Below are positions 886 to 27,996 of a DNA stretch of 35,858 nucleotides, piece after piece. This stretch comes from Anaerolineales bacterium (GTDB lineage: Bacteria > Chloroflexota > Anaerolineae > Anaerolineales > UBA4823): the NCBI GenBank assembly GCA_046260155.1, contig JBJYXV010000101.1, forward strand, positions 1-35,858. The letters run 5' to 3'. Position numbers and translations under genes: made by a program. The notes beneath the pieces are model-generated. The model did not search any database, was not told where the DNA came from, and saw nothing but the letters and a program-made list of their open reading frames with translations. The number at the start of each line of letters is the position of its first letter. Position 1 is the stretch's first letter.

Positions 886-924
886 TCAGCATAGAAAAGA
901 ACTTCCCAGGACTGAGAAGTTCTT
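886..924 (-). terminator. Rho-independent terminator-like hairpin immediately 3' of the tRNA-Val 3'-fragment copy
   Basis: 9-bp stem aagaacttc (897-905) / gaagttctt (916-924) with a 10-nt loop, followed on the minus strand by UUUUCUAUG. Confidence 0.45.
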
Positions 925-926
925 CA

Positions 927-1096
927 AATGGGCGGAACAGGACTCGAATTGAATCCCCACGTTCTCCTCGTGGGGATCTGCGACCTCTTCTGTTTATGAG
1001 ACGGGTGGAGTTTTTCCACAACCTTCATACCGTCTATTTACTGATCTGGTGTCTTTGATTTAACTGTAAGCAGGACAAGAAATATCCATTGTGTCT
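927..1096 (-). repeat. tRNA-Val 3'-end duplicate (att-like) fused to a conserved ~103-nt module, copy 1
   Basis: 927-948 are identical to 13743-13764 (22 nt: tRNA-Val acceptor 3' strand, T-arm and 3 nt downstream). 979-993 are identical to 13767-13781 (15 nt reaching anticodon-loop position 37). A 30-nt palindromic insert (949-978) separates the two blocks. 994-1096 are about 86% identical to 10885-10987. Confidence 0.8.
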
Positions 1097-1163
1097 ATTA
1101 TATCCAAGCTTTCGTGCTGTATCTGCACCAGAACTGCACCAGGCATGAGGGAGGTGAACCAGC

Positions 1164-1631
1164 TTACCCCCCGGTGGATCTCCACCAGTATCTATCATGC
1201 AATGCCTGCCAGGCACCAGTCGACCAGAGCGCCCAGATCACAAAAACAGGTTGAATAAATAAGCGGATCAAACGTGCTTGGTCGGAATTTAATCCAAATG
1301 CATCAATTCCATTGACATACTGTGAGATATTGCCGGGGAAAATTAAAACAAAGAATATCGCGGTAGCCCAGCCGATCATCACCCGGTACCTGCCAGGCAG
1401 GACAATCAATCCCACCCCAAGAATTATCTCGACCATCCCAGATATCACCACAACCAAGTCACCATCAAGAGGCAGCCAGGTAGGAACCTGGGCTAGGAAT
1501 TCTTGTCTCAGCCAAATCAGGTGGGCAAAACCTGCAAAAGCCAAAAAGCCTCCCAGGAATCTAGCGAGAATAGATTGTATGGGGCTGATCTTCACCCGTG
1601 CGAGATTTTTGTCATCCATATCACTAATCAT
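1164..1631 (-). CDS. DoxX-family integral membrane protein
   Basis: 155 aa with four predicted TM helices, a DoxX-like hydrophobic pattern, and a C-terminal WxxxAWxALHDRYWW. Confidence 0.5.
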   Translation of the reverse strand: MISDMDDKNLARVKISPIQSILARFLGGFLAFAGFAHLIWLRQEFLAQVPTWLPLDGDLVVVISGMVEIILGVGLIVLPGRYRVMIGWATAIFFVLIFPGNISQYVNGIDAFGLNSDQARLIRLFIQPVFVIWALWSTGAWQALHDRYWWRSTGG

Positions 1632-1768
1632 ACCTTCATTTTGAAAGTTTTTCAGGTCAGGATGCTGGCGTAGAAAAAAAACTCTTATGGTTTAATAATT
1701 TTGGTTTGCTTCCCTGAAATCAGGTATAAAATTATATAATTCCTATTGAGAATTACTCTGGAGGGAGC

Positions 1769-2512
1769 ATGAACATCAAGAAAATTATTAAATATACTCT
1801 TATTGGTCTTCTGGCTATAATCGTGATTGGTGTGGCGGGGATGCTGATTTGGTCAAAAACAGGAACATACCCTGCAGGGACGGTTGCCGCGACTGCCCTC
1901 GAATCATCTGACAGGGTAACAGTTACACAGGACAGGTGGATTGTTTTTGAACCCGACCAGGAAACAGACACCGGTTTGATTTTTTATCCCGGTGGCTTGG
2001 TGGAGCCAACCGCCTATGCACCCATACTGCACAAAATAGCCGAAAAAGGTGTTCTGGTAATCATCACGCCCATGCCCTTAAACTTAGCAATTTTGAATAC
2101 AGGTGCTGCTAATGCCGTAATTGAAGCATATCCGCAAATATCAAACTGGATCCTTGCTGGGCATTCACTTGGTGGCGCATCCGCGGCGATATTTGCGGAA
2201 AACAATCCAGGAACCATAGATGCCATCGTATTCTGGGATTCTTATCCACCGGACAGCGCTGACTTGTCAGATAACAATATTTCAGCAGTTTCAATCTATG
2301 GCACCACGAATAATTTTCCAAATACTGAAAACTTTAATGTCAAGAAGCACCTTTTACCATTAGACGCAAGATTTATCGCAATAGAAGGTGCAAGTCACGC
2401 TCAATTTGGCGATTATGGACCCCAGAAGGGTGATGTTGTCGCCTCAATCAGCTTAGCTGAACAGCATGAACGGGTTGCTGAAATTATGCTGGATTTCATC
2501 AACCCACAATGA
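1769..2512 (+). CDS. alpha/beta hydrolase with N-terminal TM anchor
   Basis: GHSLGG nucleophile elbow and a later His (EGASHAQFG). N-terminal hydrophobic helix IGLLAIIVIGVAGMLIW. RBS ggaggga upstream. Confidence 0.7.
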   Translation: MNIKKIIKYTLIGLLAIIVIGVAGMLIWSKTGTYPAGTVAATALESSDRVTVTQDRWIVFEPDQETDTGLIFYPGGLVEPTAYAPILHKIAEKGVLVIITPMPLNLAILNTGAANAVIEAYPQISNWILAGHSLGGASAAIFAENNPGTIDAIVFWDSYPPDSADLSDNNISAVSIYGTTNNFPNTENFNVKKHLLPLDARFIAIEGASHAQFGDYGPQKGDVVASISLAEQHERVAEIMLDFINPQ

Positions 2513-2814
2513 ATTGCAACACAACCACTTCTGCTCCAATAAAAATGTTTGAAGATTTTCAATCAGAAGGGTATTTTGATAGCAAACCGGTCCAACCCTC
2601 CATTTGCCTAAAGCTTAAAAAATAATAACTGCCCAACAAGCACATCAAGCAGTCCATTTAATAGTTATAGGCGGAATAGGAATCGAATCTCCTTCCCAAT
2701 GTTTATTGGTAAAAACACCACTTGGGGTAGGTAACAGCTAACTCATCCTGCAAAATCGATCAGCTGCGATGTCTGTCTTCAACCAATTTTTTCACCAGTG
2801 AGTACGCCAATCTA

Positions 2815-3666
2815 TTATTCTTGCTGTTTTTCCGCGACTGCAAATATCCTGAAATCACACTTATCACTGCCTTCCATGATGGTTTCTGTTCGCTGCAATC
2901 TCAGATTTGGATTGAAGGCTTTATAGGCGGTCTCGTCTGAGCTGCAAGCCATTAGATAGCCAACCCGCGGATGTCGCTCCCGGAAATATCTTGCCCATTC
3001 ACATTCACGAACATAGGTTACTGCTTCTCTTGCAGATTTACTAATCACTTCTATTTCCAAACCAGCTGTAAATAAGTTCGGAGAATCTGGTACTGATATA
3101 TAAGATTCTATAAATTCCTCGACACTCCCCTTTTCACCTCTTCCAGAATCAAGTCGTTCTTCAACCACCAGGTCGTAAACGATTAATTCTCCCTGTATAC
3201 CATACTTCTCGATCAACGCTTCAGCCAGACAAGCGAATCCATCAAAACGGATGCGCAAGGCATCATAGGCAGAGATCTCTTTTTCCATCGTATGGGTTGA
3301 GAACAGCTGTTTGATTTGAGTGATCGGTGGTGAATATTCGATGATGTTTCTTACTTCAGCACTCGACAATTCGGACCCAAAAGAGTGAAAGAATTCTGCA
3401 ATCCATTCTTCAGCTATGGCTTCTGGTTGATTGGTTTGATCTGTTTCTACTTCGTGCCATCCATTGGATAAGATTTTCATCAAGAATCGGTCGTCATACC
3501 CGGTAAAAGTGTCTCTCCAAAGCGGAAGTATGTTTTGATCCCCTAATCTTTCGCTCAATTGCCTGAGCCACCGCAAATACGGTGCATAGAAGGTAACGAA
3601 ATTAATCCTATAAGGAAACCGTCTTTTATAGCAAGGGATGTAATCCATCCTTTTCATCTTCCTCAC
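2815..3666 (-). CDS. hypothetical protein (283 aa), first gene downstream of the Zn-ribbon/HTH gene in the operon
   Basis: Long ORF with coding-like composition, co-directional and closely spaced with the operon. No motif I can name confidently. Confidence 0.45.
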   Translation of the reverse strand: MRKMKRMDYIPCYKRRFPYRINFVTFYAPYLRWLRQLSERLGDQNILPLWRDTFTGYDDRFLMKILSNGWHEVETDQTNQPEAIAEEWIAEFFHSFGSELSSAEVRNIIEYSPPITQIKQLFSTHTMEKEISAYDALRIRFDGFACLAEALIEKYGIQGELIVYDLVVEERLDSGRGEKGSVEEFIESYISVPDSPNLFTAGLEIEVISKSAREAVTYVRECEWARYFRERHPRVGYLMACSSDETAYKAFNPNLRLQRTETIMEGSDKCDFRIFAVAEKQQE

Positions 3667-3693
3667 TCAAACGTCTGGTGGCTACCATCAAGC

Positions 3694-4053
3694 CTACCAG
3701 AGACAGATGATCTTCTCCCGGTTGCGCATCTGGCTGCGCACTTTCTCCATGTGCCGTAGTGTGGCAAACTCCCGCTCTAATTCAACCAGGCTCATCCCCA
3801 GCCTCTGTGCGACAACCTCCGGGGTAGTCCCGCCGGTCTCCGCCAATACCTGCAGGATCTTCGTTTGAGTATTGCTCAAGGCTGAATAATCATCATCGAG
3901 TTGTGACAGGGTCTGTGCGCTGCGTACCGCCCACGGATCGCAAGCGCGAGCTGGATTAAGTACCCGCATATAGCATTCTTCGCATAAGGTTTCCCCATAA
4001 TACTCCATTTCTTCTCCGGTGGGGATTTCTTCAGCACAGCGTTCGCATTTCAT
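3694..4053 (-). CDS. small Zn-ribbon plus helix-turn-helix protein (putative regulator)
   Basis: N-terminal CxxC...CxxC (CERCAEE...CEEC) followed by an HTH-like segment (TKILQVLAETGGTTPEVVAQRLGMSLVELE). Confidence 0.45.
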   Translation of the reverse strand: MKCERCAEEIPTGEEMEYYGETLCEECYMRVLNPARACDPWAVRSAQTLSQLDDDYSALSNTQTKILQVLAETGGTTPEVVAQRLGMSLVELEREFATLRHMEKVRSQMRNREKIICLW

Positions 4054-4074
4054 CCTGCAGCTCCTCCCGACAGC

Positions 4075-5109
4075 TTATTCTCCCATTCCTGGTTTCCGGG
4101 CAACCGTCAGACTTGAACCAACCCAAGCGGGTAGTTCGATCTCTTGAGGCAGTAGAAATCCAGCTTCGGTCAGCCATCGCCCCCAATCTGCGCGTGTATC
4201 CAGGCCACCGGATTCGGTTGCCAGCAGCATTTGCAAAGCAAAGATGGCTGCATCGGGCGGCCCAGCCCGGTCTGGATCGAGCACAAAGTCGCGCAGTACG
4301 ATTTGGCCACCAGGCTTCAAAGCCGCGAACACCTTACGGATCAGTGCTGGGCGGCTTTCCGGTGGCTCGCCGTTAAGCACCCCGAAAACCAGGGCCAGGT
4401 CATAACCTTGCCCCAACCCACCTTTTTGGAAATCGCCCTCCTGCACGGTTACCCGCCCCGCCATGCCTGCCTCGGCGATCACCCGGCGCGCTACCGGAAC
4501 CACGCGCGGCAGCTCGAAGACGGTAGCTCGCAAGCGCGGGTAGCGGTGCGCCAGGGCCATGCTGTACGCGCCGTGACAGCCACCCACATCAATCACCCGC
4601 AGAGGGCGATTTTCCGGCAGCACCAGGCTCTCAGCGATAGCCGGGGCGATGGGCTTGGCCATCGTATACAGCCCGTGGACGAAATTCTCGATCCAGGAGT
4701 CAGGTTCTTCGTCGCGCTGGTTTTCCTCAGGGCGTTTGCCTGTCCGCACGGCCTCAGCCAAATACCCCCAACGCTGGTAGAAGGCGGCTTGTAGTTGGAA
4801 GCTGCGCAGCATGGTGCCCTCACCTTCTGGCAGAAGGCAGTCTGCAACCAGGGGAATATTGCTGAACTGATTTTCAGATTTCTTTATCAAATCGAGCGCC
4901 ACGGCAGCATTGAGCAGCAGTTCGACGCCGCGGGGCTGCGCGCCCAGCCTCTTTGCTACTTCGGAGGCCGCTGCCGGACCTTCGTTCAGAACTTCAAATA
5001 TACCTAATTCAACGCAGGTCAGCAAAATTTGGGATTGCCGGAATCCCTGGGCTAGTTCTCTTAACTGCTGGCGCTGCTTGAGTAAAATTTCATTGGAAAA
5101 GGCACACAT
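4075..5109 (-). CDS. class I SAM-dependent O-methyltransferase (COMT / O-MT family 2 type, with N-terminal dimerisation/HTH-like region)
   Basis: SAM-binding motif VIDVGGCHGAYSMALAHRYP, acidic FELP, and the DFQKGG and ALKPGGQIVLRD motifs typical of family-2 O-methyltransferases. Confidence 0.7.
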   Translation of the reverse strand: MCAFSNEILLKQRQQLRELAQGFRQSQILLTCVELGIFEVLNEGPAAASEVAKRLGAQPRGVELLLNAAVALDLIKKSENQFSNIPLVADCLLPEGEGTMLRSFQLQAAFYQRWGYLAEAVRTGKRPEENQRDEEPDSWIENFVHGLYTMAKPIAPAIAESLVLPENRPLRVIDVGGCHGAYSMALAHRYPRLRATVFELPRVVPVARRVIAEAGMAGRVTVQEGDFQKGGLGQGYDLALVFGVLNGEPPESRPALIRKVFAALKPGGQIVLRDFVLDPDRAGPPDAAIFALQMLLATESGGLDTRADWGRWLTEAGFLLPQEIELPAWVGSSLTVARKPGMGE

Positions 5110-5126
5110 TTTACGCTTTATTCTCT

Positions 5127-6242
5127 CTACTGATCACTCAAGGTCAGCAGCCCAAACCCGTTAAATGCTGCCGCCATCTGATCATAGACAGGCCGTCCAA
5201 GTAAAGATCGGTAGATTTCGTCCGCCTTTTGAGCAGGTTCAATATCGGCAAAAGCCCCAGGATAAAGAATCTTGCCTAAATAATAGGCATCAGCGATTGC
5301 CGTGTCAATATTAGTGTTGTAGTAATTATACGGCAGTTGAGCATAGACCTGCCCATTCTGTACTGCCGAGAGCGAGTCGTAAAAAGTGGTATTCTTTTGA
5401 TAGTCCTCCAGTACAGCAGCGTAACCCCCTTGGTCAATGAAGATGAAATCAGGATTCCAGTCCAGCAGCTTTTCCTTGTCGATCATGATCGAGCCACTTT
5501 CCCCGGTTTCATCGACCACGTTTCGAGCGTTGATCACATCCAGGAGCGCGTATTGACCCTGGGTGCTTTCGATGCCATGCGTTCCTTTGGACCCCAACCC
5601 GCCAACATAAACCGTTGGTTTGTCGGCTTCAGGGATGTTCATTGTCCGCGCCTCTAAATCTTGTTGAACCTTCCGAATGAATTCTGCAGCAGCTTGGGCT
5701 TTCTCTGTTGTTCCACTGATTTGCCCCACCTTCAGCAGCGAATCTTGCATGAACTGGTCAAATATGGAGGTGGTACCAAAACCCGATCCCCCGTAATTGA
5801 GCACCACCACCGGGATTCCGGTCTTGGCCTGCAATTCATCGGCAGCAGAGGCTTCTGTGGCATAAGTGCTGAAGATTACATCAGGCTCGACCGCCAGGAT
5901 CTTTTCCGGGTCGGGGGCATTGTTGGGGCCACCCTGCCCAATGACGGGCAGTCCCGCGAGCGTGGGATTGGCGAGCATGTAGGGCTTCCCCAAGGAACTA
6001 TCCGCATCCATCTGTTCCACTCCGACCACGTGGTCTAGGTTCCCGGCGTAAACCACCAGGCGCAGCGCTCCAGGACCGATGGCAATCACACGCTCTACCG
6101 TGGCAGGGAGCGTGACTTCCCTGCCCAGGAGATCGGTTACGGTAAACTGTTCGCCTTCTTTCTGCGAGGCAGCAGCGCACCCACTCATAACGAACATAGC
6201 CAGAACGAGCAAAACCAACAGGACGGACGAACGAATTTTCAT
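5127..6242 (-). CDS. ABC transporter substrate-binding lipoprotein, FecB/BtuF/TroA-like (Fe3+-siderophore or corrinoid type)
   Basis: Lipoprotein signal MKIRSSVLLVLLVLAMFVMSGC. Class III periplasmic-binding-protein-like sequence. Directly upstream of the FecE-like ATPase and FecCD permease. Confidence 0.7.
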   Translation of the reverse strand: MKIRSSVLLVLLVLAMFVMSGCAAASQKEGEQFTVTDLLGREVTLPATVERVIAIGPGALRLVVYAGNLDHVVGVEQMDADSSLGKPYMLANPTLAGLPVIGQGGPNNAPDPEKILAVEPDVIFSTYATEASAADELQAKTGIPVVVLNYGGSGFGTTSIFDQFMQDSLLKVGQISGTTEKAQAAAEFIRKVQQDLEARTMNIPEADKPTVYVGGLGSKGTHGIESTQGQYALLDVINARNVVDETGESGSIMIDKEKLLDWNPDFIFIDQGGYAAVLEDYQKNTTFYDSLSAVQNGQVYAQLPYNYYNTNIDTAIADAYYLGKILYPGAFADIEPAQKADEIYRSLLGRPVYDQMAAAFNGFGLLTLSDQ

Positions 6243-6260
6243 GCAGCTTCTCCTTGAATC

Positions 6261-7013
6261 TTATAACGGGATCACTACCCGGCTGCCGTTATGGGCGGCG
6301 ATCATCACCGGGACAGCGTACACGCTTTCAATGGTTTCCGGCGTCATCACCTCCAACCCGCCAGCAGCGAAGATCATTTTATCCTTGAGCAGGATGAAGC
6401 GATCCGCAAAACGCAGCGCCAGGTTGAGATCGTGCATCGCCACCACCACAGCGATTCCCCGCTGGCAGCTGACCTGGCGGATCAAGGTCAGCACCTCCAA
6501 TTGGTTCTTTAGATCCAGGCTGCTGGTAGGTTCGTCCATCAACAGGATTTCGGGTTCCTGCGCCAGGGCACGGGCGATGAATACCTTTTGCAGCTCGCCT
6601 CCGCTCAATTCATCCAGGTAGCGCAGGGCGTATTCACTCAACCCCAAGGTTGCTAAAGCCTGGCTGGCAATTTCCATGTCGTTTTGGGAGATATCCCAGC
6701 GTATGTACGGTTTGCGCCCCAATAGAACCGTATTGAAGACAGTAGCACGCGAGCCTGTACGCTGCTGCTCAACGTAGCTGATTTTCTGCGCCAGGTCCCT
6801 GCGGCTCAGGCTGGTGACCGGCTCATCTCCGATCAGCACGCTCCCAGCGGCGGGCGAAAGGATGCGGTTGATGCATTTGAGCAGCGTGGTCTTGCCTGTC
6901 CCGTTGGTACCTAAAATCGCCAGTACTTCGCCGCGTTCCACCGAGAAGCTGGCCTCTTCCAGCACAGGACGTCCCGGATAGTGAAATCGAAGTCCTTGAA
7001 CATTCAGAATCAT
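6261..7013 (-). CDS. ABC transporter ATP-binding protein (FecE/FepC/BtuD-like)
   Basis: Walker A GTNGTGKTT, ABC signature LSGGELQ, Walker B ILLMDEP. A 4-nt overlap with the upstream permease gene. Confidence 0.85.
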   Translation of the reverse strand: MILNVQGLRFHYPGRPVLEEASFSVERGEVLAILGTNGTGKTTLLKCINRILSPAAGSVLIGDEPVTSLSRRDLAQKISYVEQQRTGSRATVFNTVLLGRKPYIRWDISQNDMEIASQALATLGLSEYALRYLDELSGGELQKVFIARALAQEPEILLMDEPTSSLDLKNQLEVLTLIRQVSCQRGIAVVVAMHDLNLALRFADRFILLKDKMIFAAGGLEVMTPETIESVYAVPVMIAAHNGSRVVIPL

Positions 7014-8083
7014 CGCCGGGAATAACCTTTTGCCAGAATGAACAGGAATAAAGGCGCGCCGAAGAAGGAGGTGATTGCTCCGACTGGTAGAACCACCGGC
7101 GAGATCAGGGTGCGCGCCAGGGTGTCGGAAAATACCAGCAAGATTGCTCCTGTCACTGCTGAGGCGAGGATCAAAAAGCGATGATCGATCCCCAGGACAC
7201 GGCGCATCATCTGGGGAGCGATCAAACCGATGAAACCGATAATTCCCATAAAGGCTACTGCCACCGCGGTGATCAGCGAAGCCGCCAGCATGCTGCGGAA
7301 GCGGATCTGCTCCACGTTTACGCCCAGTCCCTTGGCCGCATCCTCGCCGCTCTCGAGGGCATTGTAATTCCAGCGCTGCATTAAAAAGTAGACCAGGGCT
7401 GCCGCCGTGAGCATCGATAAAATGATCACCTCTTGCCAGGAGACGCGCCCCAAATCACCAAATGTCCAGAAGACCATGGCAGCCACCTGCACATCCTCGG
7501 CGAAATACTGCACCAGCATGGAACCTGCCGCGAACAGCGAGCCGAAGGCCACTCCCGCCAGCACCACCGATTCGGTTGAGAAGCCGCGCATCCGGGCTAA
7601 GAACAAAATCATGAACATGGCCGTCATCGAGAAAATAAATGCACTGATGGTGACAGAAAAAGGGTTGGCGATGAAGACCGCATCGTGGGTGTTGCTGTGC
7701 AGGGTTCCAGCCCCAAAGAACACAATCGCCAGGTTTGCGCCGAAAGCGGCTGCGCTGGAGATGCCCAGCGTGAATGGCGAAGCCAGCGGGTTACGCAGGC
7801 AGGTCTGCATCACGCAGCCAGCCACACCCAAACCGATTCCAGCCACGATCCCGGCGATGACGCGCGGCAGACGGATGTTCCAGACCACCACGCTGGGGAT
7901 ACCGCTTTCTAAACCCAGCAGCGCCCGCAACACCTGCAAAGGATGAGTATCTGTGGCTCCGGCATTGATGGCGATGATAGCCAGACCCAGGGTCAGCACC
8001 GCCAGACCGAGGATCAGCCGTTTTTTACGGGCGGATTGTTGAAGGAAGGCTGCAGCAGCCGGATTTATCAGGTTGCTCTGCAT
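7010..8083 (-). CDS. FecCD-family ABC permease (BtuC/FhuB-like)
   Basis: About 9-10 TM helices with a FecCD-like pattern. I take the start as the internal ATG at 8083 (MQSNLINPAAAAFL...) because the longer ORF to 8227 would overlap the upstream TsaA-like gene, whose stop is at 8094. Confidence 0.75.
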   Translation of the reverse strand: MQSNLINPAAAAFLQQSARKKRLILGLAVLTLGLAIIAINAGATDTHPLQVLRALLGLESGIPSVVVWNIRLPRVIAGIVAGIGLGVAGCVMQTCLRNPLASPFTLGISSAAAFGANLAIVFFGAGTLHSNTHDAVFIANPFSVTISAFIFSMTAMFMILFLARMRGFSTESVVLAGVAFGSLFAAGSMLVQYFAEDVQVAAMVFWTFGDLGRVSWQEVIILSMLTAAALVYFLMQRWNYNALESGEDAAKGLGVNVEQIRFRSMLAASLITAVAVAFMGIIGFIGLIAPQMMRRVLGIDHRFLILASAVTGAILLVFSDTLARTLISPVVLPVGAITSFFGAPLFLFILAKGYSRR

Positions 8084-8093
8084 GCGAATTTCC

Positions 8094-8561
8094 TTATGCT
8101 TCCGGTTTTTTCCCTTTCGCAATCCCGTCCAGGGTGTTGGGGATTTGCCCGCTGGCAGCTTCCGGGAGGCAATCCAGGGCTGGGGCGTAAGCCTTGATAT
8201 CCAGCAATGGGCTGCCATCCAGGGCATCCACCCCGCGCACGATCAGGCGGTCCCCCTCCCGGCGGATCAAATCGGCCACGCAAAAGGCTATCGGGTTAGG
8301 ACGGTTCGGGGATCGGCTGGAGAAAACACCCACCGGCGTCTCGGAGAAAGGCGTGCGCGACTGCAAAATTTCCCGGTTCGCCTGGTCGCCCCAATACAGC
8401 ACGATTAAATGCGAGCAGTGGTCGATATTCTTAAGCGCTGGAGCGAACTGCGGGTAGATTTCCAGGGTGATTTCGTTATCGGATAGACGGCCCTGGTGGG
8501 GTGCATCGCCGCGTTCGTGGTAGGGGCTGTGGATCACGCCAATGGGATTCAGGTGTATCAA
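8094..8561 (-). CDS. TsaA/TrmO-like (YaeB/UPF0066) SAM-dependent methyltransferase-fold protein
   Basis: HSPY...GVFSSRSPNRPNPI...DGSPLLDIK motifs characteristic of the TsaA-like family. Confidence 0.65.
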   Translation of the reverse strand: MIHLNPIGVIHSPYHERGDAPHQGRLSDNEITLEIYPQFAPALKNIDHCSHLIVLYWGDQANREILQSRTPFSETPVGVFSSRSPNRPNPIAFCVADLIRREGDRLIVRGVDALDGSPLLDIKAYAPALDCLPEAASGQIPNTLDGIAKGKKPEA

Positions 8562-8570
8562 TTGAATCTC

Positions 8571-9608
8571 CTAAAAGAATATTTTTGCCAGTTTCAGCGC
8601 CTGCTGTTTCCACGGCAGCCGGTGCGTTACGCCAAGATCACCGCTAAGGCGTTCTTTGTTTTGCAAGTACCAGCTGAAGTTGCGCAGCAGGGCATCCCGA
8701 TTGGAAAACTGGGGATGGTACCCCAGTATTTGCTGCGCTTTTTCAATAGAAACGAAGGAATCTTTGGCCGCCGTTTCATAAATCCAGGGATAAAGAGGAG
8801 AAAGCTTGAAAGCCTCTAACGTCTTCAGGGCCATCACCACTGGGCCTGCTGGAAAAGGAATGATGCGTTTGCCAAAGCCGGCCTCATCCATCACGGCTTG
8901 ATAGTCCTGCTGCATGGTGGTGAACTCCGCTGCGCCGATATTGAAGGTATCGTTGACCAGGGCCTCATCCAAAGTCATGCAAGCTACAATCGTCTGGCAC
9001 AGGTCTTCCACATCCAGCAATTGGTAGCGATTATTTCCTGATCCGATCATCGGAAAGTTGCGCCCTTCGCTGGCCCATTCGTAGAAAATTGCGAAAACAC
9101 CCAGGCGCTCCGGGCCGACGAAAGATTTGGGCCGCAGGATGGACACGCACAAACCGTCCCGTCGAAAATCCTGGCAAACCTTCTCCGCCAGTATTTTGGC
9201 TTCGCCGTAAGGCCCCACTCCGCTGATCGGGTCTGTTTCGTAAATGGGATGATGGTCGGGAACACCATAAACCGCGGTGGTGGAGAGATGAATGAAACGT
9301 TTGACACCATATTCCCGGGCCTGCTGTAAGACGATCCGCGTGCCATCAACATCGGTTGAGTAGATATCTTCAGGCGGGTAAAGCGGCAGCGCTGCTGCTG
9401 TGTGGATCACAATATCAGCCCCGCTCATGCTTTGGCGAACGTTTTCCGGATTGCGGATATCGCCTTGCAGGAATTCGATCTGGTCACGTTCCGGATAAGT
9501 GAAATCCACCAGGTCAATACCATTTAGTTGATTGTAGCCGTGCTTCAGCAGGTAGCGAACCAGATTGATGCTCAAAAAACCGCTAATTCCGGTAATGTGG
9601 ATTTTCAT
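8571..9608 (-). CDS. NAD-dependent epimerase/dehydratase family protein
   Basis: Start MKIHITGISGFLSINLVRYLL (Rossmann GxxGxxG). YxxxK present (YGEAKILAEK). Start taken at the internal ATG (9606-9608), since the longer ORF reaches back into the fwdE-like gene. Confidence 0.75.
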   Translation of the reverse strand: MKIHITGISGFLSINLVRYLLKHGYNQLNGIDLVDFTYPERDQIEFLQGDIRNPENVRQSMSGADIVIHTAAALPLYPPEDIYSTDVDGTRIVLQQAREYGVKRFIHLSTTAVYGVPDHHPIYETDPISGVGPYGEAKILAEKVCQDFRRDGLCVSILRPKSFVGPERLGVFAIFYEWASEGRNFPMIGSGNNRYQLLDVEDLCQTIVACMTLDEALVNDTFNIGAAEFTTMQQDYQAVMDEAGFGKRIIPFPAGPVVMALKTLEAFKLSPLYPWIYETAAKDSFVSIEKAQQILGYHPQFSNRDALLRNFSWYLQNKERLSGDLGVTHRLPWKQQALKLAKIFF

Positions 9609-9621
9609 TGGAGTACATCCT

Positions 9622-10242
9622 TTATAAACGGCGTTCGCCAGCTTCAAAACAAGGGATGCACAGCTTGCGACCACCCAGTAACCGCACGCGTGTCTCCATG
9701 ACCATTTCGCCGCAGGCCTCGCACTGGATTGATTCGCGCACGCGGGCCCTACCGGGAATACGAGATTCGACAGCCTGCACTTCAAAGAGTTGCTCCAGGG
9801 GTAAAGCGAGGATCGCCTGTCCTCGTTTTCGGAACAAATCTTCGGAAAATTCATCTTCCCTGGAACCTTCCTCCACGTTCTGAGTTCTGGCTGCCATTTC
9901 GCGGGATTCATCATTCTCATTCCCCCAGGATTGTGGACGCAACACCAGGCGAATCGCCTTACCATCCGAACAGCGGATGAAGGTAAAGGCATTTTTACCG
10001 TAATCCAGGTGAATCAGGTTGCCTTTGCCAAAGGTACAGCCGGTCATGAACTGGATTGCATCCACGCCGCACATATCGCTCTCGACAATGGCGACGACTT
10101 CCTCATCAGCCGCGCGCGGGCCGATTTCACGCAGTGCCAGTTCCGCGGCACGCACACCAATAGCCAAACCGGGGCAAAAATGTCCATGAAATTGAACCAC
10201 TGCATCCTGGTCTTCCGGTATCATCCTATTCTCTTTGATCAC
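9622..10242 (-). CDS. FwdE/FmdE-family protein with C-terminal zinc ribbon
   Basis: N-terminal FHGHFCPGLAIGVR motif (hallmark of the FmdE domain) and C-terminal CEACG...CIPC. Confidence 0.75.
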   Translation of the reverse strand: MIKENRMIPEDQDAVVQFHGHFCPGLAIGVRAAELALREIGPRAADEEVVAIVESDMCGVDAIQFMTGCTFGKGNLIHLDYGKNAFTFIRCSDGKAIRLVLRPQSWGNENDESREMAARTQNVEEGSREDEFSEDLFRKRGQAILALPLEQLFEVQAVESRIPGRARVRESIQCEACGEMVMETRVRLLGGRKLCIPCFEAGERRL

Positions 10243-10269
10243 ACAGGCTTATTTGTTACAATAGGTACA

Positions 10270-10335
10270 ATTGTTGTATAATAAATTATAATGCAATTAA
10301 TCGCAAATGCAATGATTTGCGTTATAATTTTATTG
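10270..10335. promoter_or_regulatory. AT-rich divergent promoter region with a 7-6-7 inverted repeat and ATAAT/ATTAT hexamer array (putative Fur-family operator)
   Basis: cgcaaat-gcaatg-atttgcg at 10302-10321 is a perfect 7-bp inverted repeat. It is flanked by tATAATaaatTATAAT and gtTATAATttTATTgg. It lies between the fur-like gene and the divergently transcribed fwdE-ABC operon. Confidence 0.45.
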
Positions 10336-10339
10336 GATA

Positions 10340-10726
10340 TTGAGCATGAAATCTAGTACAGTACAACAATTGATTTTAGAACTGCTCTACCAGGAACACG
10401 CTCATTTTACTGCCCAGGAAGTCTATGCCCACCTGAAGCCGCGCCTGCCCAGCGTCAACCCCTCCACGGTCTATAGGGCCCTGGAACGTTTGACCAAATC
10501 TGGAGAAATATCAGTTTCGGATATGGGTACGGGGGCAGCAATGTATGAAATGGTTGGGAGCACCCCACACCATCACCTGGTTTGCCAGGGCTGCCATCGG
10601 GTGATTACCGTGGAAAACGAATTAGTCCAACCTTTTTTCGATGCAGTGGAAGCACAATTCGATTATCAACTCACCACCAATCATTTGATCTTATTCGGCT
10701 TTTGCCCGGAATGTTCCTCGGAGTGA
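10340..10726 (+). CDS. fur: Fur-family transcriptional regulator (Fur/Zur/PerR-like)
   Basis: N-terminal winged helix (TAQEVYAHLKPRLPSVNPSTVYRALERL), HHHLVC and CxxC metal-site motifs. Confidence 0.8.
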   Translation: MSMKSSTVQQLILELLYQEHAHFTAQEVYAHLKPRLPSVNPSTVYRALERLTKSGEISVSDMGTGAAMYEMVGSTPHHHLVCQGCHRVITVENELVQPFFDAVEAQFDYQLTTNHLILFGFCPECSSE

Positions 10727-10847
10727 ACGGTTGCGAATAAGGCCCTGTTTTATATTAATGCATTTTTCAAGCCCAATCATCGTCCTGTAACGAGCTTGCG
10801 CTGTAAACCCCCAAACAAGAAAACGCCCTCTGCCATTATTTCGCCAA

Positions 10848-10987
10848 CCGCGGAAGTAGGCCTCGAACCTGCACCCTCTTCTTTGTATGAGACGGGGGGA
10901 GGTTTTCCACAGTTGCTATACCGTCTATTTACAGATCTGGTGTCTTTGATTTATCTGTTAGCTGGACAGGAAATATCCAATGGGTCT
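10848..10987 (-). repeat. diverged tRNA-Val 3'-end-like fragment fused to the conserved ~103-nt module, copy 2
   Basis: 10848-10884 is about 80% identical to tRNA-Val positions about 37-73 (ccgcggaagtaggcctcgaacctgcaccctcttct vs gggcggaacaggactcgaacctgcgacctcttct). 10885-10987 is about 86% identical to 994-1096. Confidence 0.7.
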
Positions 10988-11005
10988 GCGAGTTCGATGC
11001 TTTGA

Positions 11006-11166
11006 TTGGTTTGCCAAGATATTCCTAAAAACTGTGAACTAAATTCTGTCACTAATCATGAATTGGAGATGATCATGTCCAAACTCAATCACCGTTCAAG
11101 AAAATACCTTGATTTCAAGTCACCTTTCGAGGTATTCTTCAATCATACTGCTGCACTTGCGAGTTG
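11006..11166 (+). pseudogene. IS30-family transposase C-terminal remnant (about 50 codons)
   Basis: Hand translation: ...NSVTNHELEMIMSKLNHRSRKYLDFKSPFEVFFNHTAALAS*. It matches the conserved IS30 transposase C-terminus (eELdxIaxeLNnRPRKxLgfKTPxEvF). There is no upstream catalytic domain, because an in-frame stop lies at 11003-11005. Confidence 0.55.
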
Positions 11167-11489
11167 AATGCAAGCAATGAAATTTGGAAAAGGCGATAGT
11201 ATATGGTATGAAGGGTAAAATCGTTGGAAGTATTGAGTGGAAGGGAATGGTTAGCAAGCTCATGCTGTTCGTTACCCGCTGGTGGGTGGGACAAGATGAC
11301 GCCGCCTTAACTGAACCAGCCTTGAACTGAAACCAGGGTGGGTAAATCACGCCGCTTACCTCTAGGTAACAGCCCAGTTAATTGCAACAGGGGTTAGGTC
11401 GCAGTCCACACACGTCGATAAAAAACAAGCAATACCAGTTCTTATTGGCAGATAGACGAAGATCCGCTAGCACATTCTTCATCGTCTAC

Positions 11490-13091
11490 CTATACTGTGC
11501 CAGGCCAAATGGGATTCATTTGCCAAGCATCCAAAACTTCGAGTTGTGCCTGACCGCCGCCCGCGAAGAACTTGATACCGGTGCTCTCAGGATCGGGATA
11601 GCAGCGCGCTGTAATCGCTACTCGATCATTGGCAAAAACTTGCAAGATAGAGCGATCCAGGAAAATATGCAGCTTGAGCTTTTCCTTCTCAGTCAGCTCT
11701 ATCGGGGCACTGAATGGTGACGGAGGCCAGACCTGGGACAAGCCAAAGCGGCTGGCAGGCTTAGGTGAGACGACAAGCGAGCGATTGGCATAGCCAATCG
11801 TCACTTGTTGATCACCATCCACAGCGCAAAAAAGACGCAAACCACATCTTTTAGCCGTGCTTGGGGAAAGTTCTGCAATAATTTCCAGGCAGTTGCCCTG
11901 TATAGGTAAAGCGACTCCTTGATCATTATCTGTGGTGATATCTTCCAAGTGGGTATGCTCACCACGCAGTACGCACAATTCGGGTACAGGTTGGCTGACA
12001 AGTGTGTTGTCAGGTAACAGTGACAGCACCCGCGGCAGGGGAATAACTCCTGCCCAACCCTGCGATTTCAGTTCTTCGTTATGACGACTGGGCCAGGTCC
12101 AGCCTCCCTCCCAAGACCAGGCAAAAACAATTCCCCGTCCCTGCTCGTCTATCATCACCTGGGGAGCATAATATTGACCGTGATCCAGTATACCTTCTTG
12201 TTCCGGGGTAAAGATATGATCGGTATAATCGCCCACAAAATAATAGGCTCGGCCATTGAGACCCCCTACAAGCACATGTTTATCGCCTTGGCTGAAGAAG
12301 CTGGGGCATTCCATCATCACACCGTATTGGGACGAGTTTCCCACAAAGAGAGGATCGAGGTGTTCCCAGTGATGCAAATCCGTAGAACGTGCCTGCATGG
12401 CGGCAGCCCCCTGACCTTCGATACCTGAACCGATAACAGCATACCATGTATCGCCTTCCTGCCAGAGGTAAGGGTCGCGATACCCTTCGGTCACGATTCC
12501 TTCCAGCGGCGCAACAAGGACGGGGTTATTGGGGTGCTTTTGCCAGCTGATCATCGCATCCTGGCTGGTGGCTAAGCAGACCGTTTGTTGGGCATCTGGC
12601 CCGCCCTGGTAATTATCCAAAGGTACAGTGAAGGCTGCTCCGGTGTATGCCAGGGTGGGCATGCCGTCGTTGATTAAGGCGCTACCCGACCAGCAGCCAT
12701 TCCTGTCGGGGCCGTCCGGCGTAGGCGCTAAGGCGATGGGTAGATCTTGCCAGTAGACCAGATCATCGCTTACGGCATGACCCCAGTGGATCTGGCCCCA
12801 GGCAGCCTCGTCAGGATTATATTGATAAAATAAATGGTATTGTCCTTCCCATTGGATCACACCGTTGGGATCGTTCATCCAGTTGTGCGGGGGCAGGAAG
12901 TGATACTGTGGTCGCAGTGGGTCGCTAGCCATCTTTTTTCTGATTTTCCACGCGGCAGGTTCCTGCAATGGACCGGGGGTAACGCTAGTCTGGTGGGTAG
13001 GAGAAGAGGGAGACATAGAGTCAAGCGTAGGAGAATGGGAGCATCCGCTAAGAAGTGTATGAACAGCAATACTGATCCCACTTAACTTCAT
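11490..13091 (-). CDS. glycoside hydrolase family 32 lipoprotein (beta-fructofuranosidase / levanase / inulinase type)
   Basis: GH32 signature HFLPPHNWMNDPNGVIQWEGQYHLFYQYNP, RDP motif (YRDPYLW) and EC motif (MECPSFF). Lipoprotein signal MKLSGISIAVHTLLSGC. The alternative upstream ATG at 13130 adds 13 aa. Confidence 0.85.
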   Translation of the reverse strand: MKLSGISIAVHTLLSGCSHSPTLDSMSPSSPTHQTSVTPGPLQEPAAWKIRKKMASDPLRPQYHFLPPHNWMNDPNGVIQWEGQYHLFYQYNPDEAAWGQIHWGHAVSDDLVYWQDLPIALAPTPDGPDRNGCWSGSALINDGMPTLAYTGAAFTVPLDNYQGGPDAQQTVCLATSQDAMISWQKHPNNPVLVAPLEGIVTEGYRDPYLWQEGDTWYAVIGSGIEGQGAAAMQARSTDLHHWEHLDPLFVGNSSQYGVMMECPSFFSQGDKHVLVGGLNGRAYYFVGDYTDHIFTPEQEGILDHGQYYAPQVMIDEQGRGIVFAWSWEGGWTWPSRHNEELKSQGWAGVIPLPRVLSLLPDNTLVSQPVPELCVLRGEHTHLEDITTDNDQGVALPIQGNCLEIIAELSPSTAKRCGLRLFCAVDGDQQVTIGYANRSLVVSPKPASRFGLSQVWPPSPFSAPIELTEKEKLKLHIFLDRSILQVFANDRVAITARCYPDPESTGIKFFAGGGQAQLEVLDAWQMNPIWPGTV

Positions 13092-13702
13092 TATATTCAG
13101 AAAATCATGGCGAGATAGTTCCAGAATCATGATTCTTGCCTTTGATTGTTGTATGAACTTCGATTATCCTTTGTGGTTTCGTGGCTTTACTGATTGATGA
13201 CCCAATATCTTAACGCGCGAAATCACCCAAATACATCTTATACGAATCAAATATAGTACATAATTTCGACTATGTCACTCTAAAGAATAAGAATAGCTTA
13301 TATTTTGTGTCTATATTGAAATACTGGAGCATACTCGATAACCCTACACGATAATGGATTATATAATATTTCGGAATTACTTTTTCAACAGCCCGCGATA
13401 CTTTAAGGACAAAAATCTCCACTATCCGATCGACATGTCTTTGTAAATGGTGTTGGTCGACATCGAAAGTGAACAGGTTGGGTCATTACAACTGAATATC
13501 CGATTCCCGAACGCCTGTCCCCGAAGGTGCTCGATGACCCCATAGGGCATCGGTCGGGTATCGGGAAGCAGGGTGAGGGTACTCGTGCCACCCCATACCC
13601 TGTTGTCAATCGCACAGCAACCCACCCATCTAGCCCGTCTATTCGGAGGCGGGCTTAATTTCTCAATTGCCTAAATTTTTTTCTGCTTCAAATTAATACA
13701 GA

Positions 13703-13732
13703 TTGCCGCCCACCATACAAGATAAGCGGCAA
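13703..13732 (-). terminator. hairpin 3' of tRNA-Val (weak terminator candidate)
   Basis: 7-bp stem ttgccgc / gcggcaa with a 16-nt loop, followed on the minus strand by a U-rich stretch (UCUGUAUUAAUUU). Confidence 0.25.
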
Positions 13733-13744
13733 TAATTCTCGTAA

Positions 13745-13818
13745 TGGGCGGAACAGGACTCGAACCTGCGACCTCTTCTGTGTAAGAGAAGCGCTCTAAC
13801 CAACTGAGCTATCCGCCC
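13745..13818 (-). tRNA. tRNA-Val (anticodon TAC)
   Basis: Reverse complement: GGGCGGATAGCTCAGTTGGTTAGAGCGCTTCTCTTACACAGAAGAGGTCGCAGGTTCGAGTCCTGTTCCGCCCA. Cloverleaf with a 7-bp acceptor, D-arm GCTC/GAGC, anticodon stem CTTCT/AGAAG with loop CTTACAC, T-arm GCAGG-TTCGAGT-CCTGT. No encoded CCA. Confidence 0.9.
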
Positions 13819-15717: not shown

Positions 15718-16851
15718 GTGGAACTCCCTTTTTCACTCGACTCGCTCTCCATAGATGTGCATGCTGCTGTCCAGGTAGCGATCGCGCTTTCCCTGATTGG
15801 GTTGGTGCTGTGCATCTGGCTTGGCATCCGCGCCATTCGAAAGGCCAGAACCCTGCGATTTTTCCGCATGCGCCGGGACAGTATGGTGCGAGGCTGGCGA
15901 TTGCTTTTCTTTGCGCTCGTGTTGGCACTGCTGGCATTCTTGATCAACCGCTTTGCTGAACCTGTTGCTTATAATTTTTTCCCACCTACCCCGACTGCCT
16001 CACAAACCCCGACCATTACCATCACGCCCTCCATCACCCTGACCCCCACCATCACGCTGACACCCACCATTACATTAACTCCCTCGATCACGGACACTCC
16101 TACTGTCACACCTACCCCGAGTTTGCCTCCTGAGATTGAAAGTGGTATTGAAAGTATCGTTACACCCCTCCCTGATTCAATCTTCAGCCAGCTGATTTTC
16201 AGCGAAGGCATCGATCAGGAAACCTACCAGCCGTTGAATCCAGGCGAGGTGTTCCAAAATCCAGTTGGCCACATGTATGCTCTATTCAGCTACGACCGCA
16301 TGCTGGACGGATCGCAGTGGAGTGCCCTATGGTATCGCGGAGATGACCTAGTGTATTACGAAAGTAAACCCTGGGATGGCGGTACCGGTGGATTCGGCTT
16401 TTCGGATTGGGACGCCCAACCGTGGGAATGGCAGCCCGGGGAATATGAGGTGCGCATTTTTGTGGGAACCACGTGGAACATCTCGGGACGTTTCACGGTG
16501 GAGGGTGAGGCTCCAACGCCACCTCCCAGCGCGACCCCTTCCCGCACGCCGACCACCACGCCGATGCCGACTGCCTCGCCAACCCCAACGCCCACCCGTA
16601 CTCCAACGCCAACCCGCACAGCGACACCAACACGCACACTGACGCCAACTTTCGGTCCCTCACCAACCCCGCTGCCTCCCACTGCAACCAGGACTCTGCC
16701 CCCCTCCCCGAGTCCTTCCCCCACGAAAACTCGCTGGCCGACAGCAACCCCGGTCACGATCACGCCCACGAAAACTCGCTGGCCAACTGCCATTCCTACC
16801 ACGCTCACTCCAACCATCACCCGCCAGCCCTCCTCTACTCCTTTCCCATAG
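15718..16851 (+). CDS. membrane-anchored secreted protein with two Pro/Thr-rich linker tracts flanking a roughly 180-aa globular domain of unknown function
   Basis: GTG start immediately after the FAH stop. Two TM helices, then TPTITITPSITLTPTITLTPTITLTPSITDTPTVTPTPS, a central domain, and a long C-terminal PT/PS-rich tail (TPTPTRTPTPTRTATPTRT...TKTRWPTA x2). Confidence 0.6.
   Translation: MELPFSLDSLSIDVHAAVQVAIALSLIGLVLCIWLGIRAIRKARTLRFFRMRRDSMVRGWRLLFFALVLALLAFLINRFAEPVAYNFFPPTPTASQTPTITITPSITLTPTITLTPTITLTPSITDTPTVTPTPSLPPEIESGIESIVTPLPDSIFSQLIFSEGIDQETYQPLNPGEVFQNPVGHMYALFSYDRMLDGSQWSALWYRGDDLVYYESKPWDGGTGGFGFSDWDAQPWEWQPGEYEVRIFVGTTWNISGRFTVEGEAPTPPPSATPSRTPTTTPMPTASPTPTPTRTPTPTRTATPTRTLTPTFGPSPTPLPPTATRTLPPSPSPSPTKTRWPTATPVTITPTKTRWPTAIPTTLTPTITRQPSSTPFP
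16009..16113 (+). repeat. tandem 18-nt (6-codon) repeats encoding the (T-P-T/S-I-T-L)n linker
   Basis: accgaccattaccatcacg / ccctccatcaccctg / acccccaccatcacgctg / acacccaccattacatta / actccctcgatcacggac. A further 45-nt tandem duplication at 16720-16809 starts cccacgaaaactcgctggcc in both units. Confidence 0.7.
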
Positions 16852-27717: not shown

Positions 27718-27996
27718 GCTGGAATGATTGTATAACAAAACTCAAAATTAGGGGAATTCACTTCGCAGCTGGTGATAAAATCATAGCAAGCTGGCTGCAA
27801 TCATAAAACCAGCAGCAGATGGTTCGCATGTAGAATTCGTCAGGACAAGCAATCGCGCCCAAATCAAGGAAAAGATCCTCATCCAACCTTGGTAATCCGG
27901 TATGTTAATTGCACATCAACTAGATCGTCGGGTGCAGAACGGAAACCTGCTTCGATCTGTATTTCCAAATTACTAATTTCTGCGGAGAGCTAACTA

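Follow-up and report, generated by a model that had tools for sequence, protein, structure and literature searches.

The attachment site attP of phage lambda consists of a core located between a P and a P′ arm, which carry arm-type sites for the integrase Int and sites for accessory proteins. In tRNA operons of Escherichia coli, tRNA-linked repeats are found downstream of the genes, e.g. the 178-bp repeats of tyrT. Tandem accretion and cis-mobilisable remnants (CIMEs) have reportedly been described for ICESt1-related elements of Streptococcus thermophilus (Pavlovic et al. 2004, Microbiology). For thousands of islands it has been documented that the target tRNA gene (tDNA) is restored by the island, the far end being marked by the displaced fragment; tandem arrays and anticodon-centred sites are likewise on record (PMC4383910). 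The anticodon-centred ('A') attachment sites are a category of the Islander database, whose article refers to Williams (2002, Nucleic Acids Res 30:866) for them (PMC4383910). The window studied here, i.e. the whole stretch of 35,858 nucleotides (nt) that was analysed, belongs to an Anaerolineales bacterium of the Chloroflexota (contig JBJYXV010000101.1 of assembly GCA_046260155.1) and contains two copies of a module of approximately 103 nt, each fused to a fragment of the 3′ half of tRNA-Val. It is very probable that each of these two units is an attR junction, in which the P arm of an island's attP is joined to the displaced 3′ part of the tRNA-Val gene. As far as could be judged, this Anaerolineae host group and the integrase/arm family involved appear undescribed in the literature.

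A repeat search of the window disclosed a direct repeat of two copies (978-1112 and 10869-11003), aligned without gaps over 135 nt with 81% identity (109 identical positions by our own count). Beyond positions 1112 and 11003, the resemblance of copy 1 and copy 2 is at the level of shuffled sequence. The initial annotation had delimited the module to 994-1096 and 10885-10987 and had given the identity as about 86%. The pair proved to be real, but the exact value is 84.5% (87/103). The repeat was found where it had been placed, though in copy 1 the conserved unit reaches about 65 nt farther, to approximately position 1162. As originally described, both copies read 5′-module-tRNA 3′ part-3′ on the minus strand, in the same orientation as the intact gene.

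The intact tRNA-Val gene of the window is identical in sequence to that of the closest relative (L033), and its 3′ part was presumably supplied by the last inserted element. The 3′ part of the gene recurs in gene orientation at 10848-10884, at ~2659-2690 and at 929-993, and once more outside the window. Thus, an intact tRNA gene and its cognate displaced 3′ fragments lie in the same orientation on the same replicon. While both units of the initial annotation were confirmed, the additional tRNA-Val fragments mean that the array comprises more than two layers. Fragment 1 matches the tRNA at 16 of 16 nucleotides (positions 37-52) and at 20 of 20 (positions 54-73), with the 29-nt hairpin ATCCCCACGAGGAGAACGTGGGGATTCAA in place of G53. 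It may alternatively be read as 37/37 identical with an insert of 28 nt; the perfect identity claimed before is therefore one valid reading, but the insert measures 28-29 nt and not 30. For fragment 2, an identity of about 80% had been estimated, which agrees with the 29 of 37 positions counted, one gap included. The third, degenerate fragment begins at the T-loop rather than at the anticodon loop and sits between the genes of Abhydrolase_5 and ATC_hydrolase. Since it lies inside the outer stretch, the 'outer island' is a composite of two segments. Ahead of the fourth fragment no recognisable P arm of the tRNA-Val family was detected; beyond it follow two more small genes and then a sulfatase gene, which is tRNA-adjacent in the relative L063.

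Directly after fragment 1, a terminator-like hairpin with a T-run is located, consistent with an old 3′ flank of the tRNA gene. The flank 42-67 nt past fragment 1 could be aligned to the flank 53-80 nt past the intact tRNA-Val gene of L033 with a score of 30, which was reached by none of 300 shuffles (mean 17.7, standard deviation 2.0). The locus shares with Islander islands the intact tRNA gene accompanied by displaced 3′ fragments in the same orientation, the identity block extending from the anticodon loop, the tandem arrangement and a cargo for accessory metabolism. By contrast, the islands of the window possess no integrase gene and would not pass the integrase filter of Islander.

The identity of the module was deduced from related loci. 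A scan for the 3′ 29-mer of tRNA-Val in one genome per species yielded 119 loci, nearly all of the Anaerolineae type. About a dozen of them were non-intact: these contain only a 3′ fragment beginning with the anticodon loop CTTACAC, and the conserved sequence ahead of it does not belong to a tRNA and falls into families. The 200 nt upstream of these fragments reveal one architecture in common with copy 1 of the window: a tandem GGTGCA(G/A)-N3-4-GGTGCA(G/A), a box of the type CATGGA-N5-ATAGACA-N3-TGGACA, a variable stretch with ATATAT, ATGGA and ATAGAC motifs and, finally, the anticodon loop. A profile hidden Markov model was constructed from nine arms of the relatives, excluding the window and after removal of the tRNA-identical part. 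In an nhmmer search of the window, this P-arm profile matched copy 1 on the minus strand (alignment 1012-1151, envelope 1000-1162, E=1.2e-14, 47.4 bits) and gave no other significant match. The similarity of copy 1 to the P arms is hence significant outside the part identical to the tRNA. In an alignment of 11 sequences (A3), copy 1 is collinear with the relatives' arms from the GGTGCAG repeats to the core. The tandem GGTGCA(G/A) occupies an equal distance from the core in nine of the ten relatives' P arms, the arm of L069 having one copy only. In copy 1, it is likewise situated about 125 nt upstream of the anticodon-loop core, which is outside the module coordinates of the initial annotation.

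The profile also recognised, in L083, a second partial P arm (5839-6035), 300 nt past the first junction, and in the cultured Flexilinea flocculi TC1 a P arm situated ahead of a third tRNA-Val fragment. This second arm of L083 precedes the apparent 3′ end of a different tRNA (GGTTGGGGGTCCGATTCCCTCC...), as judged by eye only. If so, L083 would contain a tandem junction array like that of the window, which would hint that arms of this family serve several tRNA targets.

At six loci of the relatives (L080, L087, L107, L112, L076 and L053), the gene of a tyrosine integrase (PF00589 + PF14659) is located directly downstream of an intact tRNA-Val gene and convergent with it. The assignment was made by Pfam for the L080 member and by blastp clustering for the other five; the family comprises 3553 database proteins at E<=1e-30. 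Between the end of the tRNA gene and the integrase stop codon, all six loci contain in the same order a terminator-like hairpin, a box of the (A/T)GATGTGGGGGT type and two to three tandem copies of GGTGCA(G/A). The P′ arm of L149 carries this repeat as well, and the 22-mer TGTGCAACCGTGTGCAACCAGA is common to the P arm of L054 and the P′ arm of L112. GGTGCA(G/A) is therefore present on both arms of the attachment site, as are arm-type sites in lambda-like systems.

By look-up of two members of the integrase family, a complete element of about 13.8 kb was found in CAYMCO010000003.1. It was pieced together from L149 and L073, which are 100% identical across an overlap of 5352 nt. Its order is tRNA-Val, P′ arm (profile E=4e-26), integrase, excisionase (TIGR01764, 49 bits), Bmp/ABC (ATP-binding cassette) transporter, GntR, adenine deaminase, molybdopterin oxidoreductase, P arm (E=8e-28) and tRNA-Val fragment. 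Thus, in an intact relative, the P arm is situated at the far end of an integrase-bearing island, next to the tRNA fragment. The first of two explanations offered in the initial annotation, namely arm-site regions of two related, tandemly accreted integrative elements, is supported by the profile match, by the collinearity and by the integrase islands of the relatives.

Like lambda attP, the family possesses an arm, here of about 170 bp, with tandem direct repeats, a motif that returns on the other arm and, in the intact relative, an excisionase gene beside int. On the other hand, the GGTGCAG motif and its spacing are family-specific, the N-terminus of the integrase shows no Pfam arm-binding domain and binding to the repeats is predicted only. 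A further motif, GGACARG...GAGTCGCCTTTCC, was noticed approximately 30-50 nt upstream of the integrase start codon (L151 9940-9972; L149 9955-9970). The distal ends of P arms contain it in reverse (e.g. L043 ~480-520; window ~1141-1160). It may represent a common regulatory or protein-binding site.

Table 1. Features of the tRNA-Val locus (window coordinates unless a contig piece is named)
Feature	Position	Strand	Basis
Intact tRNA-Val(UAC), integration target	13745..13818	-	ARAGORN; Rfam RF00005, 74.3 bits
Displaced tRNA-Val 3′ fragment 1, tRNA positions 37-52 + 54-73	929..993	-	alignments
tRNA-Val 3′ fragment 2, 29/37 identical to tRNA (78%), one gap	10848..10884	-	repeat search, alignments
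tRNA-Val 3′ fragment 3, degenerate, from the T-loop to the acceptor end, TTCGATTCCTATTCCGCCTAT	~2659-2690	-	repeat search; blastn of tRNA vs contig; sequence
Fourth tRNA-Val 3′ fragment, same contig, ~3.8 kb beyond window position 1	L137 14476-14551		blastn of tRNA vs contig
Copy 1, very probable attR arm, full P-arm homologue; module 994-1096 is its core-proximal two thirds	994..1162	-	nhmmer profile, alignment A3
Tandem direct repeat GGTGCAG-TTCT-GGTGCAG, candidate arm-type integrase-binding sites	1123..1140	-	motif positions
Conserved box GCTTGGATATAATAGACACAATGGATA; family consensus GCATGGAA-N5-ATAGACA-N3-TGGACA	1083..1109	-	alignment A3, nhmmer alignment
Truncated P arm of copy 2; identity with copy 1 84.5% over 103 nt	10885..11003	-	repeat search, alignments
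IS30-family transposase C-terminal remnant, abuts end of copy 2 similarity	11015..11167	+	NCBIfam NF033563 transpos_IS30, positions 238-267 of 267, E=0.003
29-nt hairpin ATCCCCACG-AGGAGAA-CGTGGGGAT-TCAA at T-stem/T-loop boundary of fragment 1	949..977	-	alignments
Terminator-like hairpin + T-run directly after fragment 1	892..926	-	perfect 8-9 bp stem 897-924, then TTTTC on minus strand
Inner inserted segment: IS30 remnant, GH32 glycosidase, small open reading frames; no integrase	10988..13744	.	Pfam; tblastn with relatives' integrases
Outer inserted segments, no integrase	1163..10847	.	Pfam, source-contig gene table, tblastn

Comparison with related genomes revealed that the DNA downstream of the tRNA gene is inserted. 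On the 5′ side of the tRNA gene, the genes of an RpiR regulator and a FAA hydrolase are syntenic with tRNA-Val across the Anaerolineales and 80-90% identical in L033, L103 and L063. In L063, a complete chromosome (CP070764.1), the sulfatase gene starts 307 nt after tRNA-Val; its orthologue in the source contig (88.6% amino acid (aa) identity to L063) starts 19.4 kb after tRNA-Val, and at least four tRNA-Val fragments lie in between. The altered spacing of the sulfatase gene and the flank alignment with L033 both indicate an insertion relative to these genomes. An empty site was not encountered in any of the strains of this species that were examined, and all strains with the exact FAA hydrolase have an identical island array. 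The exact look-up of the RpiR protein gave no match because of a start-codon difference. As a guide to an empty site, the hydrolase of the right flank (332 aa) yielded many homologues of 72-84% identity, none of them beside a tRNA gene, which demonstrates that synteny is not conserved on that side. Ten metagenomic contigs with copy 1 are 99% identical. Since the gene order around the tRNA gene and copy 2 is repeated in other assemblies, including two bins at NCBI, the arrangement is fixed in the species.

From the relatives, the following course of events may be proposed. The attP of the mobile ancestor would have consisted of the P arm of about 170 bp, a core that duplicates tRNA-Val from the anticodon loop onwards, up to the 3′ end, and the P′ arm. 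The tyrosine integrase would have bound to the core and to arm-type repeats, GGTGCAG being present twice on the P arm and two to three times on the P′ arm, and strand exchange by the enzyme would have taken place in the anticodon loop. By this reaction, the tRNA gene would be restored by the island's own copy of the 3′ half, and the chromosomal 3′ half would come to lie behind the P arm, at the far end of the island. In this way, two related islands probably accumulated at tRNA-Val, together with at least two other events. Afterwards, integrases, excisionases and P′ arms would have been lost, and copy 2 would additionally have been truncated beside the IS30 remnant.

Several observations weigh against an origin of the units as attR junctions. 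Between positions 929 and 13745, neither an integrase nor an excisionase nor a recognisable P′ arm was detected by Pfam, tblastn and profiles. The larger open reading frames (ORFs) between 1164 and 13615 gave no recombinase in Pfam, a tblastn search with the six integrases of the relatives against the window produced a best E of 0.36 and no remnants, and the P′ arm profile did not match the window. As no recombination genes were detected there, the link to integration rests on the homology to the relatives' arms. Copy 2 alone was not detected by the P-arm profile (E=0.7), even though a counterpart of the conserved box is found at ~10974-11000, and it is devoid of the GGTGCAG repeats. Within the N-terminal 63 residues of the integrase from the relatives, Pfam disclosed no arm-binding domain. 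Moreover, the equivalents of the anticodon loop, CATAAAC in copy 1 and CATACAA in copy 2, each deviate at two positions from the loop CTTACAC of the tRNA, unlike the junctions of the relatives, in which the loop is unaltered; the change T33A is common to both copies. Finally, the inner fragment is only 78% identical to the tRNA and the outer one is essentially without substitutions, which is opposite to the prediction of simple outward accretion followed by neutral decay.

Some of these points may be accounted for. Copy 2 lacks the GGTGCAG repeats because it is truncated. The similarity ends next to the IS30 transposase remnant, a weak match (E=0.003) far under the curated cut-off and without a counterpart in Pfam. 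This position suggests that insertion of the element and a deletion may have removed the distal arm of copy 2. In consequence of the missing integrase, the segments were filed as degraded island remnants and not as functional islands, and as a recognisable P′ arm is also wanting in the window, they are regarded as immobile. They are similar to CIMEs in that integrase-less segments bounded by attachment-site remnants lie in tandem at one site, having arisen from successive integrations and subsequent deletions. They differ from CIMEs in their unrecognisable attL-side arms and in their target, a tRNA gene instead of the fda locus, and are probably not mobilisable even in trans.

The loop differences and the diverged inner fragment could mean that the second element integrated into a displaced fragment and not into the gene, or that one junction was duplicated. 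According to the latter possibility, a single integration junction was later copied by segmental duplication or rearrangement, so that the two copies do not stem from two integrations by related elements. The module (84%) and the fragment (~78%) indeed diverge to a similar degree between the copies, the T to A exchange at loop position 33 and the CGTCT stem half occur in both, and the stronger decay of the inner copy is not predicted by simple accretion. However, the similarity ends sharply on either side of the unit, and the flanking segments otherwise share nothing. Tandem arrays of independent junctions are also present in relatives, as in L083 with its second P arm and the 3′ fragment of an apparently different tRNA, recognised by eye. 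In addition, at least two further tRNA-Val fragments without the module exist in the array, which means that repeated integration at this site did happen. A duplicated junction is therefore regarded as unlikely.

The second explanation of the initial annotation, a tRNA-derived structured RNA or a SINE-like (short interspersed element) repeat, was not supported. If the module and the tRNA 3′ half formed the gene of a structured small RNA transcribed from the minus strand, one would expect either a secondary structure that is stable or conserved and shows covariation, or correspondence to a curated family; neither was found. The nested pairing reported earlier, AGACGG...CCGTCT around GTGGA...TCCAC, does exist in copy 1, but the inner helix is broken in copy 2 by an uncompensated change from TCCAC to TCCCC. 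The outer helix is disrupted without compensation in a strain variant (AGACGG to AACCGG). Whichever strand was folded, and whether or not the fragment was included, the two copies did not differ from shuffles (z between -0.9 and +1.2), and the minimum free energies gave z values of 0.0, -0.7, -0.9 and -0.1. Rfam recognised only two tRNAs at the gathering threshold and nothing over the module at E<=1. In the module, RNAalifold with 11 family members predicted no structure apart from a 4-bp pairing that joins the two direct repeats; the covariation term was +0.32. A terminator-like hairpin does follow fragment 1 and the unit is 99% conserved among strains, but the neighbouring non-coding DNA is conserved equally well. 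A small RNA gene is thus highly improbable at this site.

Nor is the module a dispersed repeat, as only two copies were found. Both of them are adjacent to tRNA-Val fragments, which answers the question raised in the initial annotation whether the module is always associated with a tRNA. A pattern of 21-22 nt from the best-conserved part of the module was absent from the genomes of 185,579 species, each represented by one genome, and from IMG/VR; two matches in JGI metagenomes correspond to copy 1 and copy 2 themselves. A blastn search with the module against the 119 tRNA-Val loci of the relatives was negative too. Hence, many copies at unrelated sites, as expected of a dispersed repeat, were not found in these collections, and no distant copy came to light by exact matching of the pattern. 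This also bears on the idea that the module constitutes a terminus of a transposable element or a non-autonomous small repeat, either similar to SINEs and miniature inverted-repeat transposable elements or resembling the right end of IS200/IS605-type elements, that targets TTAC in the anticodon loop. TTAC is the target of IS608 and is present in the loop of the tRNA, a subterminal hairpin is located within a few bases of the tRNA-fragment junction, and remnants of transposases were detected near copy 2 and in L031. Nevertheless, the organism's metagenomic contigs yielded only two copies, no tRNA 5′ half is located on the far side of either module, and neither a TnpA nor a TnpB gene is present. 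In the relatives, the whole loop CTTACAC is retained after the arm, which is in keeping with recombination with an identity block and not with insertion 3′ of TTAC. Furthermore, the repeats of the arm also occur on the integrase side. A transposable element end is accordingly considered extremely improbable.

Further candidates were rejected. A coding function of the module does not come into question since every frame is stopped in at least one copy and the overlapping ORFs have no family matches. The 3′ end of a group I intron with its 3′ exon would leave a 5′ exon, a terminal G at the junction and an Rfam signal, none of which was found. An IS200/IS605 right end or the scaffold of a guide RNA abutting its TTAC target was dismissed on the same evidence as the transposable element end.

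The only unexpected component of the locus is the recurrent hairpin in the T arm of the displaced fragments. In three places, GC-rich hairpins with a length of 20-39 nt are inserted precisely between tRNA positions 52/53 and 54. One is the hairpin of fragment 1. The hairpin of the fourth fragment (L137 14493-14531) has a length of 39 nt and a different stem, ATCCTCCCGC...GCGGGGATTCAC, while the ends of the insert, ATCC... and ...GGGGATTCAM, are conserved in both fragments of the source contig. The third place is found in an unrelated Chloroflexia bin (L025 6100-6360, minus strand), where three tandem units of 104 nt follow tRNA-Val, each with a hairpin of 20 nt. This array is also the closest parallel to the repeats of tyrT type, which resemble the locus of the window in that partial tRNA 3′ ends are repeated downstream of the gene. 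In the window, by contrast, the copies lie at a distance of 10 kb from one another, with cargo genes between them, and both are fused to an arm of the integrase family. As a genome-wide palindromic repeat, the insert has no other member in the window, in the pieces of the source contig or in IMG/VR.

In an alignment of four sequences, the hairpin stacks on the T stem. As the hairpins are few and possibly independent, paired changes within them prove nothing. The boundary between T stem and T-loop is also the edge of the crossover region of T-loop-specific integrases. It is conceivable, if doubtful, that the hairpins result from an undescribed site-specific process at this boundary of displaced tRNA-Val fragments rather than from random decay. 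Such a process might take two possible forms, a miniature insertion targeted to the boundary or selection of a tRNA-like fold with the hairpin stacked on the T stem.

The locus represents a known class of genomic scar in a poorly studied group of bacteria and does not imply a new mechanism. For the annotation, an odd repeat has been explained, and approximately 19 kb of horizontally acquired DNA have been delimited downstream of tRNA-Val in an uncultured Anaerolineae species. The acquired DNA includes an ABC transporter of the iron/siderophore type with Fur, and a GH32 glycosidase. The signature composed of the tandem GGTGCAG, the CATGGA-N5-ATAGACA-N3-TGGACA box and the anticodon-loop core makes it possible to map island ends in Chloroflexota metagenome bins even without an integrase. 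The cargo of the outer segments comprises a 155-aa protein, two hydrolases, a helix-turn-helix protein, an O-methyltransferase, a FecCD-type ABC transporter, TrmO, an epimerase, FmdE and Fur.

Cargo of other kinds was observed in the relatives. The island of L149 carries genes for purine salvage and catabolism, and a second element downstream of tRNA-Val in the L080 genome (L151 1-9000) has a defence-type cargo with TIR_2, SduA_C/Shedu-like and DUF3800 proteins. In the window, the GH32 gene (11490-13130, minus strand) is predicted, depending on the strain, with 546 aa or, as in L139 and L143, with 480 aa and an additional upstream ORF of 40 aa, possibly a polymorphism of the start region. Two ORFs of the window are repetitive. 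The first (15718-16851, plus strand; 377 aa) contains imperfect repeats rich in Pro, Thr and Asn at 16000-16810; in this stretch, the gene callers predicted a single plus-strand gene for some strains and a pair of small minus-strand genes for others. The second (23500-27738, minus strand; 1412 aa) exhibits repeats with a period of 126 nt, and its annotation in sister contigs includes LVIVD repeats.

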